A DNA stretch of 64,000 bases from an uncultured bacterium (GCA_938028835.1 CALIMJ010000013.1:34381-98380); one strand, 5' to 3'; shown: positions 8,775 through 45,649, counted from the first letter of the stretch. Notes: generated from the sequence alone by a model not told the origin. Made by a program: numbers and translations.

Positions 8775-9716
8775 GTGGCGGATTCCGCGGTAGCCGTGGA
8801 CCTAGGCGGCACGTGGATCCGGGCAGGAAGGGTGAGCCCGGAGGGCGAGGTGACGCAGACCGTGCGGGCGCCCACACCCCAGGCGGGACCCGAGGCGGTG
8901 GCCGACGCCATCGCGGAACTGGTGCGACGCCTGGGGCCTCTGCCGCCAGGCAGGCTGGGTGTCGCGGTCCCAGGTCCCCTCAGCGTACGCGAGGGTGTGG
9001 TGTTCGAGCCCCCCAACCTCCAGGGCTGGAGGGAGGTTCCCCTGCGCGGGATGCTGGAGAAACGACTGGGCCGGCCGGTGGTGCTGGAGAACGACGCCAA
9101 CGCTGCCGCGGTGGGTGAGTGGTGGCGGGGAGCGGGGCGCGGCAGCCGGCACCTGGTGTACGTGACGGTCAGCACGGGGGTGGGCGGCGGCTTGGTGCTG
9201 GACGGGCGGCTGTACCGGGGGGCCACCGACACCGCGGGGGAGATCGGACACGTGCTGGTGGATCCCGCAGGACCCGTGTGCTCGTGCGGGCGGCGTGGGC
9301 ACCTAGAGGGCATCGCCTCGGGGCCCGCTATCGCCCGGTGGGTACTGGAACGCATCCGGGAGGGCCGACCGAGCGTGCTGGCGACGGGGAGGCCGCTTTC
9401 CGCTCGGGAGGTGGCCGAGGCCGCGGAGGCCGGCGACGGCCTGGCCCGGGAAGCCTTCGAGAGAGCCGGAAGGTACCTGGGCTGGGCGGTGGCGGGTTTG
9501 CTGAACCTGCTGAACCCGGAGGTGGTGGTGATCGGTGGGGGGGTGGCGCGGGCGGGGCGCTGGCTCTTCGACCCCTTGCGGGAGGCTGCCCGGGAAGCGA
9601 GTTTCGACCGTCCGTGGCGGGCCGCGCGCATCGTCCCCGCGGCCCTGGGAGACCGGGCGGGCCTGCTGGGAGCCGCGTACGTGGCGAGGAAGGAAGGAGG
9701 GATCTCCGGTGGATAA
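8775..9716 (+). CDS. ROK-family glucokinase
   Basis: 313 aa. Contains VAVDLGGTWIRAG, ENDANAAAVGEWW, and the ROK Zn motif GHVLVDPAGPVCSCGRRGHLE. Confidence 0.8.
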   Translation: MADSAVAVDLGGTWIRAGRVSPEGEVTQTVRAPTPQAGPEAVADAIAELVRRLGPLPPGRLGVAVPGPLSVREGVVFEPPNLQGWREVPLRGMLEKRLGRPVVLENDANAAAVGEWWRGAGRGSRHLVYVTVSTGVGGGLVLDGRLYRGATDTAGEIGHVLVDPAGPVCSCGRRGHLEGIASGPAIARWVLERIREGRPSVLATGRPLSAREVAEAAEAGDGLAREAFERAGRYLGWAVAGLLNLLNPEVVVIGGGVARAGRWLFDPLREAAREASFDRPWRAARIVPAALGDRAGLLGAAYVARKEGGISGG

Positions 9717-37493: not shown

Positions 37494-39110
37494 TCAGTCA
37501 GACCGTCCGCCCACGCTGGAAAGTACACCCGGCCCGAAGACCCGCTGGTAGACGTCCTCCGCGTGGCTGGTGGGCAGCGGCTCCCCCTCCAGCACCCGAT
37601 AGGTGCGCCGGCCCCGGGCGTCCCGCTCCGCCCGCAGGAACAGCACGGAGTCAGATCGCCGGGCGCGGAAGCGGTCCGCCAGTTCGAAGAAGTGGGTAAC
37701 GAAGAGCACGCGGACTCCCGCTTCCACGAACGCGTCCAGGACCTGGCAGGCGATCTCCGACCCCTCGCGCTCGTGGGTGGCGGAGAAGGACTCGTTGCAC
37801 AGGAACACCGAGCGCGGCGTGGCGAGGTCCACGAGGGCTCGCATGCGGCGGAGTTCCTCCACGAACTTGCCGGACTCCAGGCGTGGGTCTTCCTCCCGCT
37901 TGAAGTGGGTGAGCAGCCCCTCGCACAGACTCACGGAGAAGGACTGGGCGGGCACGAACAGCCCCGCCTGGGCCATCAGCCAGGCGATCCCCAGGCTCCG
38001 GAGGAAGGTGGTCTTGCCCCCGGAGTTGGGCCCGGTGATCAGGATGAGGCGCTTGCCGCTCGCCTCCAGGTCGTTGGGGACCACAGTCCGATCGGTGGCC
38101 AGGGCCAGCACGGGGTCGTAGAGGCCCCGGGCGGAAAGGGTGTAGCCTGCGGGGTGCACGGAGGGCAGGCAGGTGGGCAATCCACGCCGGCGAAGCTGAG
38201 TGTGCAGCCGCAGGGCGCCCACGTAGAAGGCCAGTTCAGCCCGCAGGCAGGAGAAGAAATCCCGGACGTGGTCGGCGGCTTCCCCCACGGCCGTGGCCGC
38301 TGAGGCCAAGGCCCGGTCGCGGAGGGCCTCGAGGGCCTTGACCCCCGCCTCGTCACGGGGGGAGAGCTCGAAGGTGTAGCCGTCCCGGCTCCGGCGGAAC
38401 CACGTCTTCCACCGCTCCAGCCAGCTCCGGCGCTGCTGGGGGGGTCGGTGCAGGAGGAAGTCCGTGGGCTTGTTGGCAGGCCCCGGACGCGCGCTCCAGA
38501 GGAGGCCGTGGGGCAGCCTCAACACGTCCAGGCAGGCCCGCACCTCGCCGAGGTAGGACTCCTCCAGGTCGCGGCGCAGCGCCGCGAAGAAGCGCGTCCA
38601 GCCCTCGCTGGGGAACCGGGATGCGTGGAGATCCGCGACAGACTTCAGTCTCCGGAGGGAACCCACCAGCGCCGCGAGGGTGCTGACGGACTCGCGCAGG
38701 ACCCAGTCGGGGTAGCGGGCGAGGACGCCCAGATACCGGCCTTTGAGCTGGTCTAGAGCCTCCACGCTGACGTCGTACAGCTCGAGGACGGCGTCCGGGT
38801 TTTCGAGGCAGTCCGCCAGCACAGCCTGGCGGTAGGCCACCACCGAAGGGTCTGCGCACGTGGCCTCCAGCAGGAGCCTCCGGCTGACCTCGAAAACCAG
38901 GTCGTCCTCCCCGGCCATGGCTTCCAGAAGCGGTAAGAGCCCGAGGTCCTGGACCAGGTCGTCCGCGTTCGGAGGGAGTCCCGCGGAAGGGTCGAACCCC
39001 GCGGGTGGTACGGTGCGGTGCCCGGCACGCAGGCCGGCTCGGGCCGTGGCCGCCTGCAGGGCCCAGCGCCAGTCGAAGTCCCGGTCGGGGTACAGCAGGT
39101 GCGGCTTCAT
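37494..39110 (-). CDS. MutS-related ABC-type ATPase (core plus domain V only; no mismatch-binding or Smr domain), paralogue B
   Basis: Start at MKPHLLYPDRDF (residue 262 of the track ORF); its ATG overlaps the upstream stop as ATGA. Walker A is ITGPNSGGKTTFLRS, the Walker-B-like motif is SVFLCNESFSATHEREG (N-E instead of D-E), and VTHFFEL follows. Confidence 0.75.
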   Translation of the reverse strand: MKPHLLYPDRDFDWRWALQAATARAGLRAGHRTVPPAGFDPSAGLPPNADDLVQDLGLLPLLEAMAGEDDLVFEVSRRLLLEATCADPSVVAYRQAVLADCLENPDAVLELYDVSVEALDQLKGRYLGVLARYPDWVLRESVSTLAALVGSLRRLKSVADLHASRFPSEGWTRFFAALRRDLEESYLGEVRACLDVLRLPHGLLWSARPGPANKPTDFLLHRPPQQRRSWLERWKTWFRRSRDGYTFELSPRDEAGVKALEALRDRALASAATAVGEAADHVRDFFSCLRAELAFYVGALRLHTQLRRRGLPTCLPSVHPAGYTLSARGLYDPVLALATDRTVVPNDLEASGKRLILITGPNSGGKTTFLRSLGIAWLMAQAGLFVPAQSFSVSLCEGLLTHFKREEDPRLESGKFVEELRRMRALVDLATPRSVFLCNESFSATHEREGSEIACQVLDAFVEAGVRVLFVTHFFELADRFRARRSDSVLFLRAERDARGRRTYRVLEGEPLPTSHAEDVYQRVFGPGVLSSVGGRSD

Positions 39111-40639
39111 GGGGTGAAGCGCTGGCGGACCTCCCGGTAGGTGAGCCGGTACCTGCGGGCCAGGGCCTCCGCGTAGGCGCGTCCGTCCGCCGGCTGACGC
39201 ACCACGCGGAAGGTGCGCGCTTCGGGCTGGCCGGGTGGCACCGTGGCTACCAGGCTCACGGTTTTCTCGTTCAGGGAGGCCAGCTCGTCCAGGAACGTCA
39301 CCCACACGCACAGGCAGCCGAGGTCCAAAAGCTGTCCCAGCAGCCGTCGGCCCAGGGTACGCGCGTCGCGCAGGGCGGTAGAGGAAAGGATCTCGTTGAC
39401 GATCACCACACTGCTGGGGGTCGCAGCCTGGAGGACCTCCCGGATCCTCAGGAGGTCGTCCTCCAGTTTGCCGCGCATGTCCAGCGTGTGCTCCCCGCGG
39501 GGAAAGTGGGTGAGGACCTGGTCCGGCACCGGAAGCTGAGCCTCCCGGCCAGGGATCGGACAACCGAGGGACGCCAAGTAGAAGGCCTGGCCCACCGCGC
39601 GGGCGAACGTGGTCTTCCCCCCCTGGTTGGGGCCGGTCACCACCAGGGCGCGCTCCGGAGGGCGGAAGAGGAAGTCGTTGAGAATGGGGAGCCGGCCGTC
39701 CGCCACCAGCTTCGCGGCCAGCGCCAGGTCGAAGCAATCCTGCACGAACGCCTCCGTACCGTTGGGCACCAATCTGGGTAGACAGAAGGGCAGGCCCGCC
39801 GCCCGGAGGGGAGCGACGAAGTCCAGGTAGCCCAGGTAGAACTGCGCCTCCCGGTCGAAGGCATCGATCCACCGTGCCGGCAGTTCCCCGCACGCTCTTC
39901 GGAAGTCCGCCACGCGAAGGAACAGGTCCGGGTTCAGGTGGGAAACCCCTTCCAGGATCTGCGCTTCGACAGGGTTCAGCTCCGCGGACCCCCGGAACTC
40001 GAAGCGGTACGGGGTGTCGTGGGCCTGTCGGAACCGCTCAAAGGTGGACCGCACCACCTCCGCGTAGTCCGGCTCCCCGCGGTAGGGACGGACGGTGACC
40101 CGCAGGCCCTGGACGAGCACCGCAAAGCGCAGGGACGACAGCTCCGCCTTCAGCTGTTCGGCGGCTTCCGCCAGGCTGCGGAAGGCGGGGGAATCCGCGT
40201 ACGCGGCCAGCCGGTGGCGGAAGCGGAGGAGGCCACGGCTGTGGAGTGGACAGGAGGACAGGCCCTCCAGCAGCGCCAGGACTGCCTGCGCGTACAGGGA
40301 TGCCGCGTCCAGGAACCAGCGGTCTTTCTCCACTGCGTAGAACGCTTTCTCCGCGCGGCGGAGGTGGGCCCGCACCGCGCGGAGCGCCGAGCTGAACGTG
40401 CGGACTGTCTCCGACACGAGAGGTTCTTGGAAGTCGCGGAAGACCTCGTGGCGGAAGGAGACTGCCTCGGGTTCCCGCAGCGGCGTGTAGAAGACCGGTT
40501 GCAGACCGTACTCCTCCCGGCCCGCCGTGATGGCCTGCACGACCCGGTCCAGCCCCAGGTCCTGCAGGCACGCGGGCGGGTGCTCCGGCAGCGGAGGAGG
40601 CTGGCCCGTGGGGAACAGGAGGCTCGAGAGCTCGTCCAT
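39107..40639 (-). CDS. MutS-related ABC-type ATPase, paralogue A
   Basis: Start at MDELSSLLFPTG (residue 74 of the track ORF); its ATG overlaps the USP stop as ATGA. Walker A is VTGPNQGGKTTFARA, with VVIVNEILSSTALRDA (N-E) and VTFLDEL. Confidence 0.75.
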   Translation of the reverse strand: MDELSSLLFPTGQPPPLPEHPPACLQDLGLDRVVQAITAGREEYGLQPVFYTPLREPEAVSFRHEVFRDFQEPLVSETVRTFSSALRAVRAHLRRAEKAFYAVEKDRWFLDAASLYAQAVLALLEGLSSCPLHSRGLLRFRHRLAAYADSPAFRSLAEAAEQLKAELSSLRFAVLVQGLRVTVRPYRGEPDYAEVVRSTFERFRQAHDTPYRFEFRGSAELNPVEAQILEGVSHLNPDLFLRVADFRRACGELPARWIDAFDREAQFYLGYLDFVAPLRAAGLPFCLPRLVPNGTEAFVQDCFDLALAAKLVADGRLPILNDFLFRPPERALVVTGPNQGGKTTFARAVGQAFYLASLGCPIPGREAQLPVPDQVLTHFPRGEHTLDMRGKLEDDLLRIREVLQAATPSSVVIVNEILSSTALRDARTLGRRLLGQLLDLGCLCVWVTFLDELASLNEKTVSLVATVPPGQPEARTFRVVRQPADGRAYAEALARRYRLTYREVRQRFTP

Positions 40640-41058
40640 CAGTGCACCACCATCACGGGGCAGTGGGCGTACCGGAGCACCCGCTCGGAGACCGAGCCCA
40701 GCATCCAGCGCTGCACCGGGGTGAGCCCGCGTCGGCCCAGGACGATGAGGTCGAAGGCCTCCTCGCGGGCCACCCGCACCAGGACCTCTGCGGGGTGCCC
40801 CACCTCGGTGCGCAGGGTCACCGGAACCCCCGCCCTGCGAGCCTGGTTCCGGGCCCACCGGAAGGCCTCCGCCAGCGGCCCACGGGACTGAGCCACGGCT
40901 GCGTCCACCTCCCCCTGTAGCTCCGCGAACTCCGGCGGGCGCACTACCGCCAGCGCGACCACGTCCGCGCGGTACCGGCTGGCCAGGTCCAGAGCGGCCA
41001 GCAGCGCCTTTCGGGCCGCCGGGGAGCCGTCGTAGCCGACCAGCACGCGCCGGAACAT
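40639..41058 (-). CDS. universal stress protein (UspA family)
   Basis: 139 aa. MFRRVLVGYDGSPAARKAL...DLIVLGRRGLTPVQRWMLGSVSERVLRYAHCPVMVV. The ATG overlaps the antiporter stop (ATGA). Confidence 0.85.
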   Translation of the reverse strand: MFRRVLVGYDGSPAARKALLAALDLASRYRADVVALAVVRPPEFAELQGEVDAAVAQSRGPLAEAFRWARNQARRAGVPVTLRTEVGHPAEVLVRVAREEAFDLIVLGRRGLTPVQRWMLGSVSERVLRYAHCPVMVVH

Positions 41059-42245
41059 CAGTCCCCTCCGGGTACGAGGGCCGGCTCCGGAGCCGGCTGC
41101 TGCACGTGGTGGGCCGGCAGGAAGAACCGGTTGGCGATCCAGGTGGGCACCACCGCGCTGGCCACCACCGTGGTCACGAGGAACGAGTACTGCGCCGGGT
41201 CGATGATGCCATGGGTGAGGCCGTACAGGGAGGAGATGGTCCCGAAGGTGAGTCCGGTGGACATCAGCAGGGTCGTGTACATGGCCTCGTCCCGCGCGTA
41301 CCGGTACGCCCGGGTCAAGGGGAACACGCCCACAAACTTGCTCAGTGCTTTGGCCGCGAAGAGCACGGTGAACGTCCCCAGGCCGCCCGCCACGACGGAG
41401 AGCTGGACCAGCAGGCCCGCGCGGATGAAGTAGAAGGGGGTGAGCAGGCCGAAGGTGAGGCTGCGCAGACGTCGGACCAGCTCGTGGTGGCGGCCCACCG
41501 TCCCCGCCAGGGCCATGCCCAACACGTACGCGGGGAGGACCGCTTCGGACCCCGACCACGCCGCGAGGGCACCGAGGGCGAACAGCACCCCCAGGAGGAA
41601 TTTCACCTCCAGCTCGGAGGTCCGGCCGCCAAACTGGTGCAGCACAGGCCGGGCGGCGCGGGCGGAACCCCACAGGGCGACGATCAGAACCACGACGAAG
41701 ACCGCGGTCCGCCAGCTGAAGGGGGCGAACAGGAGCCCCAGAGCCACCACCGTCCCCAGGTCGTTGATGAAGCACGCCGCCAGGATGACCTTCCCGTAGT
41801 CCGTGCGGTTGATCCCCAGTTCCAGCAGCACCGCATACACCACCGCCACGGACGTGGTGGACAGCGCGACCCCTGCGAGCCAGCTGGCCTGGGGAGCCCA
41901 CCCCAGGACCTGCCGGGCGGCCCACGCGGCGCCCAAAAAGGGAGCCAGGAACCCGGCCAGGCCCATCACGGTGGCCTCCTTCCAGCGCCTGCGGAAGGCG
42001 TCTGGGTCGAGCTCGGCTCCCGCGAGGAACGTCAGGACCACCGATCCGGTGCCCGCGAGGAAGACCACCCAGCCGTCCCGGACTCCGGGGAACGAGGCGG
42101 GGCCGAACACTCCCATCATCAGCTGGGCCAGGATCCCCACGAGGATTTCGGTGAGGGCCACCGAGACCCGCAGCCAGATCCCGAGAAGGGCGGCCAGCAG
42201 GGCGAGGCCCAGCCAGACCGCCGCCGTCCACCAGACGCTTTCCAT
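41058..42245 (-). CDS. cation:proton antiporter (CPA2/NapA-Kef type)
   Basis: 395 aa and polytopic. ...GAELD..., ...FINDLGTV... SD GGAGGTGAGG lies upstream of ATG 42245. Confidence 0.85.
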   Translation of the reverse strand: MESVWWTAAVWLGLALLAALLGIWLRVSVALTEILVGILAQLMMGVFGPASFPGVRDGWVVFLAGTGSVVLTFLAGAELDPDAFRRRWKEATVMGLAGFLAPFLGAAWAARQVLGWAPQASWLAGVALSTTSVAVVYAVLLELGINRTDYGKVILAACFINDLGTVVALGLLFAPFSWRTAVFVVVLIVALWGSARAARPVLHQFGGRTSELEVKFLLGVLFALGALAAWSGSEAVLPAYVLGMALAGTVGRHHELVRRLRSLTFGLLTPFYFIRAGLLVQLSVVAGGLGTFTVLFAAKALSKFVGVFPLTRAYRYARDEAMYTTLLMSTGLTFGTISSLYGLTHGIIDPAQYSFLVTTVVASAVVPTWIANRFFLPAHHVQQPAPEPALVPGGD

Positions 42246-42353
42246 GGCCTCACCTCCACCGGGGTCGGGGCCAAAACGAAATGGCCCCTACCCGACTTGG
42301 GTAGGAGCCATCAGCCTCCGTGGGAGGCGGTTCGGGCGGGCTCCATCGCCCGC
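42246..42353 (-). promoter_or_regulatory. structured 5' leader, copy 2: conserved 20-mer hairpin, second hairpin, terminator-like hairpin
   Basis: Minus-strand read: GCGGGCGATGGAGCCCGCCC-GAACC-GCCTCCcacGGAGGC-TGATG-GCTCCTACCCaagtcGGGTAGGGGCC-ATTTCGTTTT-GGCCCC...GGAGGTGAGGCC-ATG. Homologous to the leader at 45218..45302 (see findings). Confidence 0.55.
42273..42309 (-). terminator. intrinsic-terminator-like hairpin inside the antiporter leader, also 3' of the MFS gene
   Basis: 11-bp stem GGCTCCTACCC/GGGTAGGGGCC (one G-U pair), loop AAGTC, tail ATTTCGTTTT. An alternative pairing GGGGCC(atttcgtttt)GGCCCC shares the 3' arm. Confidence 0.55.
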
Positions 42354-42357
42354 GCGC

Positions 42358-42387
42358 ATTATCCACCAGGGTCCCCGGGGCCGTCAA
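42358..42387 (-). promoter_or_regulatory. sigmaA-like promoter TTGACG-18-GATAAT
   Basis: Read on the minus strand between the MFS stop (42419) and the leader hairpins. The conserved 20-mer starts 4 nt after the -10. Confidence 0.5.
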
Positions 42388-42418
42388 TGTCGTCGGCGCT
42401 CGCCGGAGCTTGTCCACC

Positions 42419-43612
42419 TCATGGCCGCCGCAGGGGCGACCGCGCGGCGGACCAGCCGAACAACCCGGCGGCAGACAGCTGCGTGGCCACTGCGAACAGA
42501 ACCAGGTAGCTCGGGTGCGCGTCGTAGAGGAGCCCCATCAGGGCGCTGCCCGCGAACCAGGCGACGCCGTACACCGTCTGGAACAGCCCGAAAGCGGAGG
42601 CCCGGCGGTCCGGGGGGACCATGCGGGCCACCGCCGCGCGCAGCACCGACTCCTGCAGGCCCACGCCCATCCCCCAGAGGACGATCCCGGCCACGGCGCC
42701 CGCAGGGCCGCCGAAGATGGCGAGGGGCGCGAATGCCGCGGTGGCCGCGGTTCCCAGAGCCAGGGTCCGGATACCGTAGCGGTCGAACCAACGCCCCAGG
42801 ACTAGGGCCGCGACAGCGTCCGTGGCCATGGCGAGCGCGTACAGCACGGGCACGGCTGTCGTTGGGAGGACGGCGTTCCGGGCGAAGTGGTACGCCAGCA
42901 GAGGGAAGTCCACGAACCCCGCCGCCACGAGCCCTGCTCCCAGGAGGTAGAGGCCGAGCGCGCGGCGCAGTCGGAAGTCCAGAGGGCTGGAAGTGTCCTC
43001 CAGCTGCGACGGTTGCGGGAACCGGGTACGGGCCCAGGCCACCGTCAGCAGGCAGAGGGCCGCCGGAAATGCCAGGGCCGCGAAACCCCACCGCAGACTG
43101 CCGCCCGCGCCGAGCACCGCGGCCACCAGCAGCGGGCCGGCCACAGCTCCCACTTGGTCCAGAGCCTCATGCAGGCCGAAGGCCCACCCAGCCCCCACCC
43201 GGCTTGCCGCGTACGAAAGCATCGCGTCCCGGGGTGGGGTTCGCACGGCTTTGCCCGCGCGCTCGGCCACCACGAGCGCGGCGGCAGCCTCCCACCGGCC
43301 CACCACGGCCAGGAGGGGGACGGACAGGAGGTTCACCGCGTACCCTGCCGCGGTGAGGTCCCAGAAGCGGCGGGTCCGGTCCGCCAGCCGACCGGACACC
43401 AGGCGCAGCCCGTAGCCCACGAGCTCCCCCAGCCCGGCCACGAAGCCGACCGCGGTGGCGGAAGCACCCAGGGCCAGCAGATAGGGGCCGAGGATGCTGC
43501 GGGCACCCTCGTACGTGGCGTCTGCCAAAAGACTTACCACGCCCATCAGCACCACGAAGCGGGTCGCTTCGCGGGCGGCGTCTTGCCGGGCGCTGAGGGT
43601 CTGGGCCTTCAT
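42419..43612 (-). CDS. MFS transporter
   Basis: 397 aa with ~12 TM segments and loop motif SGRLADRTRR. The ATG overlaps the upstream stop by 4 nt. Confidence 0.85.
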   Translation of the reverse strand: MKAQTLSARQDAAREATRFVVLMGVVSLLADATYEGARSILGPYLLALGASATAVGFVAGLGELVGYGLRLVSGRLADRTRRFWDLTAAGYAVNLLSVPLLAVVGRWEAAAALVVAERAGKAVRTPPRDAMLSYAASRVGAGWAFGLHEALDQVGAVAGPLLVAAVLGAGGSLRWGFAALAFPAALCLLTVAWARTRFPQPSQLEDTSSPLDFRLRRALGLYLLGAGLVAAGFVDFPLLAYHFARNAVLPTTAVPVLYALAMATDAVAALVLGRWFDRYGIRTLALGTAATAAFAPLAIFGGPAGAVAGIVLWGMGVGLQESVLRAAVARMVPPDRRASAFGLFQTVYGVAWFAGSALMGLLYDAHPSYLVLFAVATQLSAAGLFGWSAARSPLRRP

Positions 43613-44373
43613 CGTCCTGTGGGCGACCGGATGGCTCGCGGCCGCACGTCCGGAGCCGACCGGACCTCGTTGGGGTCGCGGCCGCTGAGCACCTCCAGCG
43701 CCCGCGTCCAGCTGGTGCCCTGCTCCGGGGTCAGTCCCTCGTGGCGGAAGCGGTAGTCGTGCTTGCGGACGAGTTCGGAAAGGTCAGCCTCTAGCTGCGC
43801 CAGGGCCTGTCGCTGGGCCTCCAGAAGGCGCGTGAGGTGTTCCGGGGACCTGGCCACCGACGCGGCGAGAGCCAGGTGGGCAAGACACAGCGGCGCCGGG
43901 CCAGCAAGGGCCTGCCGCACCTCGGGGTCTGCAGAGTGCTCCAGGAGGCTTGCCACGTACACTTCCTCCATGCGCTGACGGTGCAGGCAGGCGGGACACG
44001 GGGCAGCAGGGAGCAGGGCGTGCTGGAGGGCGGACCCCGCATCCCGTCGGCGTCTGGCCTGGCCCCGGAGCGCCGCGTTCACACGGTCCAGCAGGGCTCC
44101 CACGAGGTCCCGGTACACGATGGCGACCCCCAGGACCGGGTTGCGCTGCGCCGGGAGAGCCCACGCGTGGTGCGGGCAGAACCCCCAGCTGGCCCGCACC
44201 TCCTGTCGCGTGTTGGGATCGTTCACGCGCTCGTACAGGAAGTTATCGAGGAACCGCTGCACCGCGTGGGTGGCGAGCCGGCAGACGGGGCAGCCGCCGG
44301 ACGCCAGGGCCTCCCGGACTCTGGCGAAGACCAGGTCGTCCCGCCGCACGGCGCCGTGGGGCTCACCGCGCAC
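43609..44373 (-). CDS. uncharacterised protein with duplicated CPxC...CxxH motifs
   Basis: 254 aa. GGCPVCRLATHAV...FLYERVNDPNTRQEVRASWGFCPHHAWAL...APCPACLHRQRMEE...PLCLAHL. It resembles an uncharacterised CPxC/GFCxxH family seen in Firmicutes; I believe it is a catalogued DUF but cannot verify that here. Confidence 0.6.
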   Translation of the reverse strand: MRGEPHGAVRRDDLVFARVREALASGGCPVCRLATHAVQRFLDNFLYERVNDPNTRQEVRASWGFCPHHAWALPAQRNPVLGVAIVYRDLVGALLDRVNAALRGQARRRRDAGSALQHALLPAAPCPACLHRQRMEEVYVASLLEHSADPEVRQALAGPAPLCLAHLALAASVARSPEHLTRLLEAQRQALAQLEADLSELVRKHDYRFRHEGLTPEQGTSWTRALEVLSGRDPNEVRSAPDVRPRAIRSPTGR

Positions 44374-44818
44374 GGCACACGCCCCCGAGCAACCGTGCGA
44401 GCCAGCTCCGGACGCGCCGCGCCCTCCTCAGGTCCGGTGCCGGCCCGGAGGGGACCTCCTCCGGACCCGCGGGTTGGAGGGCCAGCCCGCGGGGCCGCTG
44501 TCTCCAGTAGGCCAAAGATCGGCGAGCCTGTTCCACGGAGGCCTGGAGGCCCACCAGATTCATACGCAGCCCGCGCACGGCCTCGTCCGCCAGGTACGCG
44601 CGGTGCCGCAAAGTCGCGAGTTCGGCCCGTGCGGCTCCGAGGGCCCGCAGGGCGTCCTCCGGCGGAGGCCAGAGGTGCACCGCCGCGCCGTAGCCCAGGA
44701 GGATTCGCAGGCCCTCTTCCTGGGTCCAACCCTCTGCCCGCAGGATCGCGTCCACCTCCCGGGCTGTCTCGTCGTCCAGGGGGACGTGCACCGTGACCAG
44801 GACGTCGTGCTCGTCCAT
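44363..44818 (-). CDS. ribbon-helix-helix-like N-terminal domain plus coiled-coil protein (paralogue 2)
   Basis: 151 aa with SD AGGAGGAA upstream. VLVTVHVPLDDETAREVDAILRAEGWTQEEGLRILLGYGAA fits the beta-alpha-alpha RHH (CopG/Arc) pattern, followed by a heptad-rich region. Confidence 0.5.
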   Translation of the reverse strand: MDEHDVLVTVHVPLDDETAREVDAILRAEGWTQEEGLRILLGYGAAVHLWPPPEDALRALGAARAELATLRHRAYLADEAVRGLRMNLVGLQASVEQARRSLAYWRQRPRGLALQPAGPEEVPSGPAPDLRRARRVRSWLARLLGGVCRAR

Positions 44819-44827
44819 GGATTCCTC

Positions 44828-45217
44828 CTACTCTTCTTGGAGGGTCTCTGAGGGCTTCCGCTGCCGGTTCCGTAGAGCGAACAGGGCTCGGCGCAACCGC
44901 GTGTACTCCGCGCTGAGCGCGTTCACCCGCTCACGGAGCACGTCCAGCTCCCTCTCGCGGGCCAGGGTGCGGGCGCGCATGGACAACGCGTGGGCAAGGG
45001 CTTCCCGGCGCTGCAGCTCCAGCTGTGCCGGGGCCCCGTGGGGCTCACCCGACGCGGTCAGTTCGTGCCAGGCTTCCTGGTCAGCCGCGTACCGGCGGGC
45101 CCCCTCGGCGATCAGCCACGCGAGGCCGACCTCCAGGGGCCAGAAGCCGAGAGAGGACAGGGCCTCCGCCAGCTGCGCCAGGTCCTCGCCCGTAAGGGTC
45201 AGGGTCATGTGCCGCAT
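44828..45217 (-). CDS. ribbon-helix-helix-like N-terminal domain plus coiled-coil protein (paralogue 1)
   Basis: Start taken at MRHMTLTLTGEDLAQLAEALSSLGFWPLEVGLAWLIAEGARRY (ATG 45217, or ATG 45208). The track start at TTG 45337 coincides with a -35 box and would place a terminator hairpin inside the CDS. Confidence 0.5.
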   Translation of the reverse strand: MRHMTLTLTGEDLAQLAEALSSLGFWPLEVGLAWLIAEGARRYAADQEAWHELTASGEPHGAPAQLELQRREALAHALSMRARTLARERELDVLRERVNALSAEYTRLRRALFALRNRQRKPSETLQEE

Positions 45218-45302
45218 CCTGAACAAAAAGCTCCTACTGGCAACCCAGTAGGAGCTATCAACCCGGCTAACCGGGTACGCAAGGGCGAGCCCCATCGCCC
45301 GC
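45218..45302 (-). promoter_or_regulatory. structured 5' leader, copy 1: conserved 20-mer hairpin, second hairpin, terminator-like hairpin
   Basis: Minus-strand read: GCGGGCGATGGGGCTCGCCC-TTGCGT-ACCCGGttagCCGGGT-TGATA-GCTCCTACTGGgttgCCAGTAGGAGC-TTTTTGTTCAGG-ATG. Confidence 0.55.
45221..45256 (-). terminator. intrinsic-terminator-like hairpin immediately 5' of the RHH gene start
   Basis: Perfect 12-bp stem AGCTCCTACTGG/CCAGTAGGAGCT, loop GTTG, tail TTTTGTTC. The 3' arm contains the only SD-like AGGAG. Confidence 0.55.
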
Positions 45303-45308
45303 ACGTCC

Positions 45309-45337
45309 AAGATAAGGGGGCCGACGATCCCCGTCAA
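45309..45337 (-). promoter_or_regulatory. sigmaA-like promoter TTGACG-17-TATCTT
   Basis: Read on the minus strand. The conserved 20-mer starts 6 nt after the -10. It sits back-to-back with the + strand MerR-type promoter 35 nt away. Confidence 0.5.
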
Positions 45338-45372
45338 CCGGCCGTGGGGATCGGGCGGCTTGGGAGCGGCGG

Positions 45373-45404
45373 TTGACCTTCCAGTACGGTGGAAGGTTTA
45401 CCGT
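45373..45404 (+). promoter_or_regulatory. MerR-family (CueR-like) operator-promoter
   Basis: TTGACCTTCCAGTACGGTGGAAGGTTTACCGT. The -35 is TTGACC, a 20-nt spacer contains the inverted repeat ACCTTCCA-N6-TGGAAGGT, and the -10-like box is TACCGT. It is nearly superimposable on the E. coli copA promoter core TTGACCTTCC..GGAAGGTTTAACC as I remember it. Confidence 0.6.
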
Positions 45405-45426
45405 CGTCCGGGAGGAGGTGGTGAAG

Positions 45427-45649
45427 GTGACTTCGAACCCGCAGCGGCTGCACCTCAAGCTGGGTGGGATGCACTGCTCCCTCTGTGTGGAGTCCGTGCG
45501 CAAGGCGGTCCTGCGACTCCCCGGGGTACGGTCCGTGCACGTGTCCATGGCGCATGAGGAGGCCCTGGTAGAGTACGAGCCGGACCGCGTGTCTGCCGAC
45601 GCCATGGTGCTCGTCCGGGAAGGCGGGCAACCCGAATCTGGTTCCATGA
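45427..45649 (+). pseudogene. copZ-like HMA metallochaperone gene with an apparent 1-nt frame disruption near its 3' end
   Basis: SD GGAGGAGG, then GTG. VTSNPQRLHLKLGGMHCSLCVESVRKAVLRLPGVRSVHVSMAHEEALVEYEPDRVSADAMVLVR... is a complete ferredoxin-like HMA (the same MHCxxC variant as the copZ at 53160). The current frame then has no stop for ~1 kb (track ORF 45373..46626). Shifting +1 at the GGG run 45617-45619 gives ...KAGNPNLVP-stop at 45647-45649. Confidence 0.55.

Follow-up and report, generated by a model that had tools for sequence, protein, structure and literature searches.

Introduction

The fluoride riboswitch, also called the crcB motif, was reportedly described in Weinberg et al. 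2010 and Baker et al. 2012; it is a well-studied RNA switch by which protective genes are activated as fluoride accumulates. Fluoride contacts no base of this RNA, bridging instead three Mg2+ ions on backbone phosphates near the pseudoknot, and the A40-U48 linchpin pair is essential to fluoride switching (PMC8752731). In transcriptional fluoride riboswitches, bound fluoride guards the pseudoknot from invasion by the terminator, and expression rises (PMC11077080, PMC2864571, PMC12667848); a terminator overlapping the pseudoknot strand is a described platform design (PMC2864571, PMC11077080). The genes associated with the crcB motif, as listed in 2010, include mutS and ion-transport genes (PMC2864571), and Na+/H+ antiporters are the second most common class found with fluoride riboswitches, according to a 2024 review (PMC11139923). 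Here we describe two leaders, copy 1 and copy 2, both read, together with the operons that follow them, on the minus strand of a 64,000-nucleotide (nt) stretch of DNA from an uncultured bacterium (GCA_938028835.1, CALIMJ010000013.1:34381-98380; hereinafter, the window). Both leaders are very probably fluoride riboswitches of Rfam family RF01734 working as transcriptional ON switches, each with its own sigma-70-type promoter.

The closest relatives of the window are hot-spring metagenome-assembled genomes of Candidatus Tepidifontimicrobium, phylum Candidatus Sysuimicrobiota. Coordinates of all features are collected in Table 1.

Family Assignment of the Two Leaders

Scanning of the whole window at the Rfam gathering thresholds yields one match only, and this is copy 2, a member of RF01734 (42295-42359, minus strand; 54.1 bits, E = 3.2e-12), aligned over the full length of the model, positions 1-64. 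The region 45100-45450 (351 nt) was additionally scanned permissively, and here RF01734 is by far the best match of copy 1 (45242-45308, minus strand), with 28.4 bits, which is under the gathering score of 34 bits, and E = 4.5e-6, or approximately 8e-4 when rescaled arithmetically to the whole window. Here the model aligns to stem P1 with its loop and to the 3' tail, passing over the linker and the second hairpin. Other weak Rfam matches near copy 1, to microRNA and long non-coding RNA families, have E-values of 2-7, far under their gathering scores, and are ascribed to chance.

The two leaders also resemble each other. Exact matches to the core pattern GGCGATGGNGNNCGCC are found within the window at these leaders only, and their 20-mers, each self-complementary, are identical at 18 of 20 bases. 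When folded with RNAfold, both leaders are more stable than shuffled sequences (z = -4.4 and -3.1), and the terminators are formed.

An earlier note on this DNA had listed two promoters, the 20-mers, second hairpins and terminator hairpins, all of which are present on the minus strand, and had interpreted them as a candidate new cis-regulatory RNA or attenuator. Its general description, a ligand-type cis-regulatory leader ending in a terminator, with compensatory changes between the copies, holds. The novelty does not, since the note itself had named a confident Rfam match to a known family as what would remove it, and the Rfam scan provides exactly this for copy 2. The RNA class is already known, and the element is predicted to work like the fluoride riboswitches and belongs to them, the membership of copy 2 being certain. 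This removes a false candidate for a new riboswitch class; standard Rfam annotation already detects copy 2. That the leaders might nevertheless form a new three-hairpin class, unrelated to known families, is suggested only by their not having been recognized in the earlier note and by a leader-terminator architecture which is generic; set against the confident match of copy 2, the same family as the best match of copy 1 and a family-typical pseudoknot backed by covariation (see below), we regard its probability as negligible. A leader-peptide attenuator was also considered and rejected, because no leader open reading frame (ORF) is seen in the leader sequences.

For both copies, and for copy 1 in particular, fluoride is the ligand predicted from family membership, and the ON-switch behaviour would be expected in vivo on the same basis.

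Aptamer Structure and Covariation

Both aptamers follow the same plan. P1 closes a loop of 8 nt, AUGGrGCy, and is connected by a linker to hairpin P3; after P3 comes the 3' tail UGAUrGCUCCUAC, which contributes six nucleotides to pairing with the P1 loop, and this pairing is the pseudoknot. P1 with its loop reads GGGCG/AUGGGGCU/CGCCC in copy 1 and GGGCG/AUGGAGCC/CGCCC in copy 2, both loops agreeing with the family loop AUGGnGnn, and the arms of P3 are ACCCGG/CCGGGT and GCCTCC/GGAGGC. The core UGAU...CCUAC, carrying the A40-U48 linchpin positions, is present in both copies (UGAUAGCUCCUAC and UGAUGGCUCCUAC). The change in the pseudoknot between the copies, GGGGCU/AGCUCC in copy 1 versus GGAGCC/GGCUCC in copy 2, is compensatory.

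The element is an H-type pseudoknot aptamer with a terminator, and not three independent hairpins. The three hairpins noted earlier do exist, the first and the second being P1 and P3, as the RF01734 matches imply, and the third being the terminator, but the defining pseudoknot had been missed. Similarly, TGATrGCTCCTAC, seen as a conserved sequence opening the third hairpin, is indeed conserved and is more than that, namely the 3' core of the aptamer that pairs with the loop of the first hairpin.

Related leaders were collected from 122 loci (L001-L122), fetched with an eight-sequence alignment as the query because they encode proteins related to the operon 1 DUF6062 protein. A loose two-anchor regular expression found approximately 47 fluoride-type aptamers in these loci, and a covariance model of P1 and P3 only, built from 31 compact examples (R1), produced 114 matches over the window and the loci. 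In the alignment of 76 distinct sequences to the covariance model, with the pseudoknot added by hand and pairs counted, standard pairs occupy 97.2% of cells overall: 98.3% in P1, with two-sided changes in three of four pairs; 93.4% in P3, where all six pairs have such changes; and 99.5% in the pseudoknot, which is absent from the search model and has two-sided changes in four of six pairs. None of 500 shuffles reached the observed values, and sliding the 3' partner by 1-3 columns decreases the pairing to 39-55%.

In some fluoride-type aptamers located directly upstream of DUF6062 genes (L074, L084, L088, L092, L099, L118 and L076/L078), P1 and P3 are separated by an additional hairpin or a long insert. 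Several loci contain 3-5 aptamers in approximately 12 kb, with five fluoride aptamer matches in L055 and three each in L024 and L117, which points to dense multi-operon fluoride islands.

Terminators and the Predicted Switching Mechanism

In both copies the 5' arm of the terminator contains the 3' strand of the pseudoknot (AGCUCC in 45256-45245 of copy 1, GGCUCC in 42312-42299 of copy 2), and CUCCUAC-loop-GUAGGAG with a U-run stands after nearly all related aptamers. As this pseudoknot strand is the base of the terminator 5' arm, the bound aptamer would block the terminator. In the proposed sequence of events, which is the one published for this class, fluoride binding would lock the pseudoknot via the A40-U48 linchpin, the terminator could not form, and RNA polymerase would read through, switching the genes on.

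In copy 1, two possible start codons follow the U-tract, ATG 45217 at 4 nt and ATG 45208 at 13 nt. The AGGAG within the terminator stem had been called the only sequence of copy 1 resembling a Shine-Dalgarno (SD) site; this is not quite right, because the second ATG, the start point of several ORF1 homologues, is preceded at a distance of 8 nt by AGGA (45220-45217).

Copy 2 has a further segment between the terminator and the start codon. As suspected earlier, the terminator 3' arm can indeed pair instead with the downstream GGCCCC, and this alternative is conserved among all six orthologues. The terminator is formed in the full minimum-free-energy fold, where the downstream GGCCYCKACCC is paired to the SD region; with the aptamer kept folded, as a proxy of the ON state, and folding permitted only downstream of it, the terminator 3' arm GGGUAGGGGCC pairs with the downstream segment and the SD is freed (six of six orthologues). 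In these orthologues, 98.5% of the cells of the helix joining this arm to the downstream segment are paired, versus 31-74% in slid controls, and the SD-sequestering helix has 84%. These alternative folds suggest a four-strand relay coupling transcriptional and translational control, a reasonable inference and not a demonstration: with no fluoride, the downstream C-rich segment would pair with the SD, and with fluoride, the freed terminator 3' arm would capture this segment, exposing the SD. If this is true, the switch acts on both transcription and translation.

The downstream GGCCYCKACCC segment is a near-repeat of the terminator 5' arm (42253-42293 in the window; also in L001, L002, L044, L045 and L049). 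Elsewhere, a second hairpin CCUCUAC...UAGAGG with a U-run is located right after the first terminator (L069 and L080, 5922-5996 in each; L122, 5893-5967; L057, 7603-7648), and in these leaders its 5' arm can pair with the 3' arm of the first hairpin, suggesting a two-terminator relay.

Divergence and Maintenance of Copy 1

Several observations weigh against the assignment of both leaders to working fluoride switches, most of them concerning copy 1. It lacks the conserved AACC linker and has UUGCGU instead, leading into ACCCGG, its P3 closes with A-U and has no G-C closing pair, and these changes could mean that the affinity or even the function of copy 1 differs; with 28.4 bits, it fails the RF01734 gathering score. 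In copy 2, the U-tract is interrupted (AUUUCGUUUU), and the relay helix is represented by six closely related sequences with one compensatory change and is equalled by 94 of 500 shuffles. Finally, the R1 scores of copies 1 and 2 are circular and carry no independent weight, because the training set of R1 includes both of them, so that the independent scores are those of Rfam only.

The curated Rfam model was run on 12 related loci in order to judge copy 1 independently. Upstream of ORF1-ORF2-DUF6062, the gathering score is passed by the orthologous leaders of L049 (37.7 bits), L004 (41.1), L016 (41.2), L050 (36.8), L006 (44.0) and L097 (35.5 and 34.5); those most closely orthologous to copy 1, from L001, L002 and L045, are under it, like copy 1 itself. 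The canonical linker, present in copy 2 as AACC(G)CC (GAACCGCC), is kept in all eight antiporter leaders and missing in 16 of 17 distinct ORF1-type leaders, and among the linker-less ones surveyed (L001, L002, L004, L016, L043-L050, L097 and others) several pass the gathering score. Since so many leaders of this type score as fluoride aptamers without the linker, the latter appears dispensable, and copy 1 does not look like a wreck.

Copy 1 could still be a decayed or retuned aptamer, that is, a constitutive leaky terminator or a switch with a very different fluoride range, which would leave copy 2 as the only working switch. The low score (28.4 versus 34 bits) and the absent AACC linker are what such decay would look like; however, this variant is retained in L001, L002, L043, L044, L045 and L049, the P3 stem is maintained in close orthologues as its loop changes, with one P3 pair changed on both sides in L044, and the pseudoknot change is compensatory. 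Moreover, copy 1 retains GAUG, the pseudoknot, UGAU and CCUAC, and thus has every defining feature testable here except the score threshold and the linker. Given these observations and the linker-less ORF1-type leaders that pass the gathering score, we consider decay improbable and conclude from the sequence comparison that copy 1 is a diverged yet maintained fluoride aptamer, not a one-off decay; it is likely to respond to fluoride.

The distribution of the linker allows for one more explanation, that leaders of the copy 1 type form a variant subclass recognizing another ligand, as the non-canonical linker goes with a single type of operon (16 of 17 ORF1-type versus none of eight antiporter leaders) and ligand switches have occurred in some other riboswitch families. 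We consider this very improbable: fluoride contacts only Mg2+ on backbone phosphates (PMC8752731), and the P1 loop, the pseudoknot, UGAU and the linchpin positions are retained; the operon belongs to the same fluoride neighbourhood, with genes for CPA2 antiporters, universal stress proteins (USP), MutS-like proteins and sometimes CrcB; and aptamers with the canonical linker precede DUF6062 genes too, in nine of 26 direct leaders.

If copy 1 is indeed a maintained fluoride aptamer, the ORF1-type leaders may form a natural sub-class working without the AACC linker, and the Rfam gathering threshold misses a conserved linker-less sub-type, an observation useful both for the family model and for understanding the role of the linker.

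Promoters

The consensus scan for promoters and terminators covered 42150-45450, with shuffled controls, and identified two promoter-like sites only, one before each leader (shuffle mean 0.0). The promoter hexamers are kept before orthologous leaders in related genomes, and the spacers have diverged. Transcription is predicted to start near 45302 for copy 1 and 42351 for copy 2, probably 0-2 nt ahead of P1.

A 9-bp inverted repeat GGTTGACGG...CGTCGGCC at 45319-45339 (minus strand) overlaps the -35 element of copy 1 and is present in close orthologues. It lies within a short divergent region adjoining a gene for an HMA-domain protein, which starts at 45373 on the plus strand, and could be an operator.

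This repeat, together with ORF1 and ORF2, the small helical proteins of unknown function encoded at the beginning of operon 1, would fit control by a protein, e.g., autoregulation through binding of ORF1 or ORF2 to the RNA or to the promoter hairpin, with the RNA structure being incidental. Yet Pfam, NCBIfam, PDB profile and Foldseek searches reveal no DNA- or RNA-binding domain in either protein, most of the related aptamers are not accompanied by ORF1 or ORF2, and the copy 2 operon has neither of them, making this explanation highly improbable compared with two fluoride riboswitches. The ribbon-helix-helix (RHH) label previously given to ORF1 and ORF2 finds no support in Pfam, NCBIfam, the PDB sequence search or the fold search, although a monomer model is unable to reveal the strand that RHH dimers form between subunits; the label is unsupported, as neither protein has a family or a PDB relative, nor do the two resemble each other (no detectable paralogy, E = 2.7). 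For ORF1, no Pfam or NCBIfam family was found, Foldseek against PDB gave no hit at E <= 0.001, the PDB profile search returned coiled-coil noise only, and just 12 homologues were identified.

Genes of the Two Operons

Copy 1 is predicted to control ORF1, ORF2 and the genes for the DUF6062 protein and the MFS transporter (operon 1), and copy 2, the genes for the CPA2 antiporter, the universal stress protein and two MutS-like ATPases (operon 2), whose stop and start codons overlap throughout (Table 1). The gene context of copy 2 is textbook, because the associations with mutS, ion-transport and antiporter genes have already been published. The MutS-like proteins score far under the MutS1 and MutS2 cut-offs of NCBIfam; their genes are adjacent and translationally coupled, and such a pair recurs beside fluoride aptamers in approximately ten loci.

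The promoter of copy 2 starts 32 nt past the stop codon of the MFS gene, so that read-through from operon 1 would meet the second riboswitch. Copy 2 may therefore also act as a fluoride-dependent terminator of operon 1 read-through, and the eight genes may constitute a fluoride-gated series.

No CrcB-type channel was found in the window by tblastn with the E. coli CrcB and a second CrcB-like query (the best match has 25 residues, E = 0.009, 9525-9587), although this negative is a weak one. Among the genes under the two switches, only that of the MFS transporter is exporter-like. The window, from the hot-spring lineage Candidatus Sysuimicrobiota, would have two fluoride switches in series over eight genes, with no CrcB detected in 64 kb.

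Table 1. Features of the two leaders and of the operons that follow them, in window coordinates.
Feature	Coordinates	Strand	Details
Copy 1 promoter	45309..45337	-	-35 TTGACG 45337-45332; 17-nt spacer; -10 TATCTT 45314-45309; consensus score 9/12
Copy 1 aptamer, diverged	45248..45300	-	P1 45300-45296/45287-45283; pseudoknot 45293-45288 (GGGGCT) with 45256-45251 (AGCTCC); P3 45276-45271/45266-45261; UGAU 45260-45257; UAC 45250-45248
Copy 1 expression platform	45222..45256	-	Terminator hairpin 45256-45229, 12 bp, AGCTCCTACTGG/CCAGTAGGAGCT, then TTTTTGTT; terminator scan and RNAfold
ORF1, small helical protein of unknown function	44828..45217	-	129 aa, or 126 aa from ATG 45208; AlphaFold2 pLDDT 78.6, three helices, disordered N-terminus
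ORF2, small protein of unknown function	44363..44818	-	151 aa; no Pfam or NCBIfam match
DUF6062 protein	43609..44373	-	254 aa; PF19538, E = 7e-16; two invariant CxxC...CxxH sets
MFS transporter	42419..43612	-	397 aa; MFS_1, E = 9e-34; start overlaps DUF6062 stop
Copy 2 promoter	42358..42387	-	-35 TTGACG 42387-42382; 18-nt spacer; -10 GATAAT 42363-42358; consensus score 10/12
Copy 2 aptamer, canonical	42301..42351	-	P1 42351-42347/42338-42334; pseudoknot 42344-42339 (GGAGCC) with 42309-42304 (GGCTCC); P3 42328-42323/42319-42314; UGAU 42313-42310; UAC 42303-42301
Copy 2 terminator	42273..42312	-	Hairpin 42312-42280, 14 pairs, GATGGCTCCTACCC/GGGTAGGGGCCATT; U-rich tail ATTTCGTTTT; terminator scan and RNAfold
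Copy 2 downstream segment (putative relay)	42253..42272	-	GGCCCCGACCC (42272-42262), able to pair with either the terminator 3' arm or the SD region (GGAGG, 42257-42253)
CPA2-type cation:proton antiporter	41058..42245	-	395 aa; Na_H_Exchanger, E = 4.5e-37; TIGR00932 CPA2
Universal stress protein	40639..41058	-	Usp, E = 9e-36
Two MutS-like ATPases	39107-40639 and 37494-39110	-	MutS_V, E = 6e-16 and 5e-22; domain V only; stop/start overlap

Association of Fluoride Aptamers with DUF6062 Genes

Among the 122 loci, all fetched for DUF6062 genes, 112 have usable upstream DNA, and in 60-68 of these an aptamer is found upstream of the DUF6062 gene; the set contains some duplicates of the same contig, and R1 matches under 30 bits may include false positives. 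An aptamer on the same strand is situated at most 300 nt upstream of the gene in 41 of the 112 loci, and at 300-1500 nt in a further 27, usually with ORF1 and ORF2 in between; with matches of at least 30 bits, these counts are 36 and 24. All three directly upstream cases checked with Rfam (L055, L069, L106) pass the gathering score. DUF6062 loci with aptamers span Sysuimicrobiota, Chloroflexota, Armatimonadota and other groups, and the neighbourhoods contain genes for CPA2 antiporters (33), MFS transporters (30), USP (21), MutS-like proteins (9-10) and CrcB (5). ORF2 co-occurs with ORF1 and DUF6062 in approximately 21 loci.

The invariant residues of DUF6062 proteins are C28, C31, C66 and H69, and C126, C129, C163 and H166. 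The AlphaFold2 model is confident and all-helical (pLDDT 88.7, pTM 0.82), and Foldseek finds no structural relative in PDB at E <= 0.001, the query-normalized TM-score being at most 0.18 in the 50 matches listed. No mention of DUF6062 or PF19538 was found in the searchable literature.

The DUF6062 module and the linker-less aptamer sub-type may constitute an undescribed part of the fluoride response, which we propose tentatively, regarding it as possible and still rather doubtful. If true, DUF6062 would rank among the undescribed protein families most consistently controlled by fluoride riboswitches; it provides a concrete candidate for the unexplored part of the fluoride stress response.

Comparison with Known Systems

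With the fluoride riboswitches of RF01734, the leaders share P1 with the AUGGnGnn loop, P3, the UGAUrnCUCCUAC tail, the six-bp pseudoknot and the overlapping terminator, as well as the gene contexts of cation:proton antiporters, MutS-like proteins and USP. The differences are copy 1, which has no AACC linker and is under the threshold, and the DUF6062 context, which appears in no searchable paper.

PDB 4ENC is named as the template for the Thermotoga petrophila aptamer (PMC11077080). The crcB riboswitch of Bacillus cereus has the same overlap of the terminator 5' arm with the pseudoknot 3' strand, and the same linchpin-gated ON logic is predicted for the window leaders (PMC11077080, PMC8752731). 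Compared with it, the window pseudoknots are GC-rich, copy 2 having six Watson-Crick pairs and copy 1 one G-U wobble, and resemble the thermophilic type, which did not switch with E. coli RNA polymerase at 37 C (PMC11077080). A further difference from the B. cereus riboswitch is the extra segment downstream of the terminator in copy 2. The T. petrophila aptamer sequence, GGGCGAUGAGGCCCGCCCAAACUGCCC...GGGCUGAUGGCCUCUAC, appears nearly colinear with copy 2.

The trp-type four-strand attenuators are similar to the platform of copy 2 in having mutually exclusive pairings, here the terminator (1:2), the alternative helix (2:3) and SD sequestration (3:4), as proposed from six sequences. Unlike in these attenuators, there is no leader peptide in copy 2, and the choice between the pairings would be set by the ligand-locked pseudoknot, not by the position of the ribosome.

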